This document shows positions 54,245 to 56,715 of a DNA stretch of 64,000 nt, piece by piece. This stretch comes from Escherichia coli (lineage in GTDB: Bacteria > Pseudomonadota > Gammaproteobacteria > Enterobacterales > Enterobacteriaceae), in the NCBI RefSeq assembly GCF_003334385.1, contig NZ_QOWN01000022.1; one strand, given 5' to 3'. Both the position numbers and the translations under genes were made by a program. Under the pieces are notes generated by a model. That model worked only from the letters and a program-made list of their open reading frames with translations. It searched no databases and was not told the DNA's origin. Positions within the stretch are counted from its first letter, which is position 1. Each line of letters opens with the position of its first letter.

Positions 54245-55477
54245 TTATGCCGCCAGCACGCGGTTGCGTCCATCATTTTTCGCCCGATACAAAGCATCAT
54301 CAACGCGTTTAAACAGTTCATCGATGCTTTCATTTCCTTCGTGATGCGCCACACCAATGCTGACGGTAAAGCGTGGTAAGCCCGAAATACTCACTTTTGC
54401 CACGCTTACGCGGATAGTTTCAGCCAGCGAAAGCGCGGTATCCAGTGGGGTTCTTGGTAGCAATAAGACAAACTCTTCGCCTCCCCAACGAAACACCAAA
54501 TCGCCTTTGCGAGCGCAACTTTCGAGGGTGCGGGCGAGGGCGCATAACACCTCATCACCTTTAGAATGCCCATAGAGATCGTTAATGTGTTTAAAACGAT
54601 CGGTGTCGATGAGCAACAAGCTGTAATCCTGAGCGATGGCGAGATGCTGCATTTGGCCTGGTTCCGTAATGTGATAAAACTGTCGCCGATTCAGTAATCC
54701 GGTCATCGCGTCATGGTGAGCAGCATGTTCCAGCTGCTCCTCCAGCCGTTTTTGCTCAGTAATATCATGCACAATACATAACATGAGCTTGTCGCCATAA
54801 ATTTCAATCGGTCCGGCATAGGTCTGCACATGACGAGTCGAACCATCCGCCAGTTTATGAACAAAATTCAAAGGTTTATGACCACCGGGTAAATGCGAGA
54901 TTTCATGCATGATAGGCATGACGCGACGCCCGAGCATATTTATTTCCCAGGTATGTTTCTGGCACATCGTTTCATGGTTATAACCATAGAAATTGAGCGC
55001 GGCGAGGTTAGCATCGACGATTTGTCCATCTCGTGACGGGTCAATCAACAACATTGGTGCAGAGTTAGTCAGAAAAAAGCGCGCATAAAAACCTTGTTTT
55101 TTGCGCTGATAATTTGCCGAGCGACTGGCTTTTAAACCCAGCGTTGCCGGCGCTTCGATACCTTCGAAAATAATCACCGGTTCTGTTTCTGTCAGCTTTC
55201 GCAAAACAAGCCGACAGCTCAATGCTGTTTCCTCTTCTTTACGCTGAACAGTGAGGATTTCGATAATATCGTGTTGGTTTTGCAGATCGGAGAGGTATTT
55301 CGGCAGTTCTTTTTGTGAGGAGACGGAATAGGGTCCGGTTCGTAGCTGACTAAACGTGAGGTCTTGCATCAACAGTTTCGCCGCGCTATTGGCATAAATT
55401 AACTGTTCCTCAAAGGGCGAAACGATCCAGACAGGACTGGTGAGTAAGTCCAGGGTATTGAAGTTGTGCGTAATCAT
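54245..55477 (-). CDS. dgcM: diguanylate cyclase with tandem PAS domains
   Basis: Start set at MITHNFNTLDL (410 aa); GGEEF motif RWGGEEFVLLL. Confidence 0.9.
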   Translation of the reverse strand: MITHNFNTLDLLTSPVWIVSPFEEQLIYANSAAKLLMQDLTFSQLRTGPYSVSSQKELPKYLSDLQNQHDIIEILTVQRKEEETALSCRLVLRKLTETEPVIIFEGIEAPATLGLKASRSANYQRKKQGFYARFFLTNSAPMLLIDPSRDGQIVDANLAALNFYGYNHETMCQKHTWEINMLGRRVMPIMHEISHLPGGHKPLNFVHKLADGSTRHVQTYAGPIEIYGDKLMLCIVHDITEQKRLEEQLEHAAHHDAMTGLLNRRQFYHITEPGQMQHLAIAQDYSLLLIDTDRFKHINDLYGHSKGDEVLCALARTLESCARKGDLVFRWGGEEFVLLLPRTPLDTALSLAETIRVSVAKVSISGLPRFTVSIGVAHHEGNESIDELFKRVDDALYRAKNDGRNRVLAA

Positions 55478-55710
55478 TGAGATCCCGTTATTTTTATCAA
55501 TTTTTGTTGCTATCCGATCGCAAAAAAGCCACGTCATATGATCAGATAATTCTGATAATGATAGACGCTATTTAACACTTCACACGGTTTGTATACGGAA
55601 AAGCATTTTGCTTTTTGTATTCAATTTAGACAGAATTTTATTAATCATTTCAGGGTAATGGGGTGATGAGATGTTGCGTAACAGGGCCAGAAGGCTAGAC
55701 TACAAAATAA

Positions 55711-56715
<1,005 letters not shown>

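Follow-up and report, generated by a model that had tools for sequence, protein, structure and literature searches.

Is a palindrome in the divergent intergenic region of dgcM and zntB in Escherichia coli an operator through which a dimeric regulator acts on dgcM? The gene encodes the diguanylate cyclase DgcM, which acts with PdeR and MlrA to license transcription of csgD and formation of curli/cellulose biofilm, and the shut-off of this module by envelope stress is currently explained by the small RNA RprA only.

Position of the dyad at the dgcM promoter

The window (the whole 64-kb stretch of DNA that was analysed) is E. coli chromosome, and its positions 55400-55800 are at least 99% identical, in single copy, in 5392 of the 5394 matching complete genomes. 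RefSeq annotation and the list of open reading frames place dgcM at 54245-55477 (minus strand, 410 aa) and zntB at 55732-56715 (plus strand), with 254 bp between them. An earlier note on this DNA had described a perfect inverted repeat upstream of dgcM and had proposed it as a candidate operator for a dimeric regulator of that gene. The description was correct on sequence and annotation in all respects (coordinates, perfect 6-bp arms with a 4-bp spacer, distance to dgcM, and the dgcM/zntB setting): the plus strand at 55541-55556 reads ATCAGATAATTCTGAT (that is, ATCAGA-TAAT-TCTGAT), a 16-bp palindrome whose 6-bp arms are perfectly complementary around the spacer TAAT and whose near edge lies 64 bp from the dgcM ATG. 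Such repeats are common, however. The window holds 27 perfect 6-4-6 inverted repeats (15.6 expected under uniform composition), each spacer class from 0 to 10 contributes 14-35 perfect 6-bp inverted repeats (mean of approximately 21), which amounts to about one per 270 bp of window for any of these spacers, and the intergenic region itself carries two other 6-bp dyads. With 27 repeats of the same 6-4-6 layout in the window, the palindrome was rejected as significant in itself, and any significance of the dyad must therefore rest on its position, motif identity and conservation.

The position relative to transcription was taken from published work on the dgcM leader. The 5' UTR is given as 74 nt, and the nucleotides numbered in the same source include G54, G66-68 (part of the Shine-Dalgarno sequence), G83 and G101/G102, as well as a site for pairing with OmrA/B at nt 91-102 (Hoekzema 2019, PMC6443205). 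When this numbering was applied to the window sequence, all of these positions fitted only a +1 at the A at 55551 on the minus strand, in which case nt 91-102 reads UCAAUACCCUGG. The 74-nt leader thus occupies 55478-55551, with its Hfq (AAN)n site (leader nt 48-64) at 55488-55504, and the OmrA/B site lies just inside the coding sequence at 55450-55461 (all minus strand; PMC6443205). The pairing site of RprA is also just inside the coding sequence, at +3 to +37 of the ydaM (dgcM) coding region, and transcription of ydaM is sigma-S-dependent (PMC3465796).

With this start site, the dyad spans -5 to +11 of the dgcM promoter, straddling the transcriptional start site (TSS), where repressors classically bind, and directly follows a sigma-S-type -10 element (TCTATCAT). 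The sigma-S -10 consensus is TCTATACTTAA; at dgcM, TCTATCATTAT ends 4 nt before +1, the extended -10 of T(-14), C(-13) and TATCAT(-12 to -7) lies at the right distance from the TSS (55558-55565, minus strand), and an A/T-rich discriminator follows it. The -35 region is poor and differs between species. A sigma-70 promoter scan returned a sole match, which overlaps the ATG and was dismissed as irrelevant, the real promoter being of the sigma-S type and placed from the published leader length. An in-frame ATG at 55535-55537 (minus strand, +15 to +17 of the mRNA) would extend the open reading frame to 430 aa (54245-55537); it is probably not used as a start, because it falls within the loop of the hairpin predicted for the leader, at 14 nt from the 5' end, and no Shine-Dalgarno sequence precedes it.

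Match to the RcsB box and conservation in Escherichia

RcsB is the response regulator of the Rcs phosphorelay, which responds to envelope stress. Its binding site, the RcsB box TN(G/A)GA-N4-TC(T/C)NA, has been defined by crystal structures of RcsB on DNA and by EMSA with mutated sites (Huesa et al. 2021, PMC7913699). In a pattern match, the 14-bp core of the dyad, TCAGATAATTCTGA (55542-55555, -4 to +10), agreed with this box at every specified position. RcsB was picked post hoc, after comparison of the dyad with many transcription-factor motifs, and the consensus is low in information (approximately 14 bits; six fixed and two two-fold positions), with 2 matches in the window against 2.4 expected. 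Of the RcsB consensus sites in Salmonella, no more than about a quarter are at differentially expressed genes (PMC7913699). The core was also compared with two validated sites of Salmonella Typhimurium, the fepE box TCGGATAATTCTGA, bound by RcsB in DNase I protection and EMSA, and the ytfK box TTAGATAATTCTGA, bound in EMSA (Huesa et al. 2021, PMC7913699). It is identical to each at 13 of 14 positions, TAAT spacer included, with the mismatch at a degenerate position only; the window would be expected to hold 0.00 and 0.02 sequences that differ from the fepE and ytfK boxes, respectively, at no more than one position. The likeness is thus one of 14-bp architecture and spacer. The two Salmonella boxes sit upstream of the respective promoters (-36 to -22 for fepE and -50 to -36 for ytfK), whereas the candidate box at dgcM lies on the TSS, in another organism and at another gene, and they carry EMSA or footprint evidence, whereas the dgcM box is a prediction from sequence. 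A search of the available literature that included E. coli RcsB ChIP-seq found no EMSA, footprint or ChIP data on the dgcM dyad, no report tying RcsB directly to dgcM, ydaM or zntB, and no report containing the dyad sequence string.

Conservation was followed in a profile scan that used one genome per species and covered 80 dgcM loci. The RcsB box was exact and in register in E. coli, three cryptic-clade Escherichia, E. whittamii and E. albertii, lineages whose DgcM proteins are 88-99% identical to the query. It was absent at approximately 70 dgcM loci of Citrobacter, Enterobacter, Lelliottia, Kosakonia, Yersinia, Klebsiella and others, and the 300 nt upstream of the non-Escherichia dgcM loci contained 1 RcsB box match against approximately 1.5 expected. 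Deep phylogenetic footprinting found the dgcM promoters outside Escherichia not alignable save for the Shine-Dalgarno region. In the alignment of the six Escherichia lineages, 77% of the intergenic columns were invariant, and the longest invariant intergenic run was a 29-nt block that includes the dyad (CGTCTATCATTATCAGAATTATCTGATCA, 55539-55567, minus strand, -16 to +13; next longest run 14 nt; permutation p = 0.018). Among five divergent E. coli strains, leader SNPs occurred at 55487, 55492, 55503 and 55532, none of them in the block. E. fergusonii (DgcM 75% identical) has kept the -10 element as CTACTAT and has lost the dyad, which reads ATCGGGATAGCCATTT. As the dyad is exact only in the E. 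coli-E. albertii clade, it would, if functional, be an innovation of that clade.

A candidate RcsB operator and its alternatives

What was observed is the sequence, where it lies with respect to the published TSS, its fit to the motif and how it is conserved; RcsB binding and repression are inferences, which differ in strength. RcsB~P probably binds the dgcM dyad in vitro; that the dyad is an RcsB~P operator occluding the dgcM promoter, in parallel to the Rcs-RprA repression of dgcM mRNA, we rate a little short of an even chance. In such a mechanism, an RcsB homodimer, as suggested by the full symmetry of the dyad, would occupy the start of the sigma-S-dependent promoter with its core at -4 to +10. 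Envelope stress would raise the level of RcsB~P and bring a dimer to the dyad, where it would keep RNA polymerase from binding, from forming an open complex or from escaping the promoter, and lower dgcM transcription would reduce the DgcM/PdeR/MlrA input to csgD and curli. RcsB at dgcM would then form the transcriptional arm of a coherent feed-forward loop, of which the post-transcriptional arm is known (RcsB activates RprA, and RprA pairs with dgcM mRNA).

Boxes in comparable positions are mostly associated with repression. In Salmonella, 7 of the 10 RcsB boxes that overlap the TSS or lie downstream of the TSS or ATG are at repressed genes, examples being SL1344_1235 (-6 to +8, log2FC -3.35), flhD (+4 to +18) and ymiA (-13 to +1) (PMC7913699). 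The SL1344_1235 box and the RcsB/RcsAB box of flhDC P1 (+4 to +18), which overlap or follow the TSS and repress, resemble the dgcM candidate in position and in expected outcome (occlusion or roadblock), whereas the flhDC box differs in having GGA/TCT half-sites and a TTTT spacer and can involve RcsA, the dgcM dyad being fully symmetric. The RcsB box of E. coli gadA adjoins the -10 element and, as a core-promoter box, has been proposed to obstruct RNA polymerase at high RcsB activity (Castanie-Cornet 2010, PMC2887963), much like the candidate at dgcM; it has a very low affinity and works with a GadE-RcsB activating site (PMC2887963), whereas dgcM shows no evident partner site for activation. 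The promoters of hmsT and hmsCDE, c-di-GMP synthase genes controlling biofilm in Yersinia, are bound by Rcs regulators, as proposed here for dgcM, although these genes are not orthologous to dgcM and the repression is partly indirect (PMC4325325).

Few inputs to dgcM are known, and Rcs is among them, with RcsB activating RprA (PMC3465796), and deletion of rcsB leads to more curli expression. In the fusion experiments described by Mika 2012 (PMC3465796), a ydaM::lacZ translational fusion was lowered in an rcsC mutant with activated RcsB, and an rcsB knockout relieved this effect; within the curli cascade, the rcsC effect was relieved by knockout of rprA as well as of rcsB, with ydaM stated to be 'similarly affected'. 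On these data, relief by the rprA knockout argues that whatever effect is independent of RprA is small, at least where Rcs is mildly activated, and the genetics leans against a large direct effect of RcsB on dgcM under mild induction. The Rcs-RprA control of ydaM/dgcM and csgD reported there has the same Rcs input and the same target as the candidate box, whereas RprA acts post-transcriptionally within the coding sequence (+3 to +37; PMC3465796) and the dyad would act on transcription initiation. If true, a direct RcsB operator would add a transcriptional arm that accounts for a robust shut-off under strong Rcs activation, and would be an example of a recently gained regulatory site confined to the E. 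coli-E. albertii clade; if the site is inert, it is a case in which matching a low-information consensus means little in spite of a striking position. The operator proposed in the earlier note is accordingly plausible, contradicted by no finding and more specific than before, not established: the TSS-straddling position, the perfect RcsB box and the conserved block speak for it, and the weak consensus, the missing site in E. fergusonii and other genera, Rcs genetics that points to RprA, and an alternative origin in the leader hairpin and discriminator speak against it.

This alternative, which we consider quite possible though on balance doubtful, holds that the dyad is incidental and has no dedicated regulator, its left arm (-5 to +1) being the A/T-rich sigma-S discriminator with the start site, its right arm (+6 to +11) belonging to the 5' arm of a leader hairpin, and the two complementary by chance. 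The predicted 5'-proximal hairpin (55510-55549, minus strand) has a 10-bp stem of nt 3-12 (UUAUCUGAUC, 55540-55549) with nt 33-42 (GAUCGGAUAG, 55510-55519), and may shield the 5' end of the mRNA or give shape to the leader, which is under Hfq/sRNA control. It is both the minimum free energy (MFE) and the centroid structure and is predicted in 6 of 7 Escherichia lineages; 98.6% of the alignment cells in the stem pair, and the three variable pairs switch between U-G and U-A only. Chance is made easier by the abundance of 6-4-6 dyads and by the low information of the RcsB consensus, E. fergusonii retains the -10 element and not the dyad, the genetics reported by Mika 2012 (PMC3465796) assigns Rcs control of ydaM to RprA, and the -10 element, discriminator, TSS and hairpin arm could between them account for the conservation from -16 to +13 without a regulator. 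However, the hairpin is not backed by compensatory (two-sided) changes, the three variable pairs changing on one side only, the z-score of the leader fold is only -0.62, and shuffles do not discriminate. The 4 stem columns that vary all fall on the 3' arm, and the 5' arm, which overlaps the box, has none (hypergeometric, approximately 0.04), a bias that RNA-only constraint does not predict and that for this reason suggests a DNA-level constraint beyond RNA pairing. The 13 of 14 identity to two validated RcsB sites, spacer included, is also left unexplained.

An operator for another regulator, either Fur or an uncharacterised dimeric transcription factor, is unlikely. For Fur, there are GATAAT repeats at 55545-55550 and 55554-55559 together with GATAGA, and a Fur-box-like 19-mer, GATAATGATAGACGCTATT (55554-55572, plus strand), shares bases with the -10 element and the dyad's edge; no other sequence in the window comes as close to the Fur consensus, although the match is weak (14/19). 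A Fur box was taken to be the 19-bp GATAATGATAATCATTATC or at least three contiguous NAT(A/T)AT hexamers; here, the 19-mer has a single good half (10/10, the other being 4/9), only two hexamers are contiguous, the third GATAAT being offset by 3 bp, and the element is not centred on the dyad. Deletion of fur does affect curli upstream of csgD, but a site on the -10 element would repress, so that the deletion should raise curli, and it in fact lowers it. Fur was rejected on the weak half-box and on this wrong direction of the curli genetics. By-eye comparison with the consensus sequences of other E. coli dimeric regulators gave no fit to the dyad for CRP, LexA, IHF, MqsA, HipB, NarL, UvrY, CsgD, MlrA, OxyR or MetJ. 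LysR-type regulators, whose consensus is ATC-N9-GAT, did not fit either, the dyad having ATC-N10-GAT, and FNR was rejected on the wrong orientation of the half-sites. A 'ydaM/ydaN' peak with no FNR site assigned to it is reported in a 2006 FNR ChIP-chip study (PMC1802558); this peak is probably due to the FNR-dependent promoter of FnrS, 1.2 kb away. The FnrS small RNA was located at 56811-56928 (plus strand), between zntB and ynaL/dbpA (Rfam RF01796, 134.8 bits).

That the dyad acts as a nucleic-acid hairpin itself, either as an RNA stem-loop of both arms or as a DNA cruciform, is scarcely credible and was rejected in spite of the perfect complementarity of the arms: the TSS at 55551 splits the dyad, so that of the upstream arm only A(+1) is transcribed and both arms cannot pair in the mRNA, the predicted RNA fold pairs the right arm with nt 33-42 instead, and a stem of 6 bp around a 4-nt loop is too weak to extrude as a cruciform.

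The candidate RcsB operator could also be imagined in a wider role, to which we give very little credence. The dyad would here be a lineage-specific operator (E. coli-E. albertii clade) common to the divergent dgcM and ynaN-zntB promoters, through which envelope or zinc stress, acting via Rcs, would shut the DgcM c-di-GMP input to curli and adjust the zinc transporter ZntB, and the overlapping conserved Dam site (GATC, 55540-55543) could make occupancy methylation-sensitive and thereby add to the bimodality of curli expression.

Other features of the locus

The 74-nt dgcM leader contains three GATC (Dam) sites (55540-55543, 55516-55519 and 55481-55484) against approximately 0.3 expected. Of these, the first, which is invariant in Escherichia, takes in the end of the dyad and the RcsB box's first base; the second pairs with it in the leader hairpin, and the third is specific to E. 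coli. A second dyad in the intergenic region, AAAAGCA-TTT-TGCTTTT at 55599-55615, has longer, 7-bp arms and is centred at approximately -56 of the dgcM promoter; its symmetry is broken in other Escherichia species by a G-to-A change (TGCTTT to TACTTT), and the palindrome is not conserved. In Escherichia sp. MOD1-EC7003 (L003, approximately 1700-1880), the dgcM promoter upstream of about -75 has been replaced by unrelated DNA that looks like a repetitive-element insertion, with the core promoter and dyad untouched. dgcM is annotated as a pseudogene in E. coli ST-131 (NZ_CP157672.1, truncated) and NCCP 15734 (NZ_CP097001.1, frameshifted), and this annotation despite an intact promoter region in both suggests a recurrent loss of DgcM function in some lineages. 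On the zntB side, a 15-codon open reading frame at 55671-55718 (plus strand) lies just upstream of zntB; it is annotated in RefSeq as 'protein YnaN' (gene name ydaN) and may be a leader peptide or upstream open reading frame for zntB.
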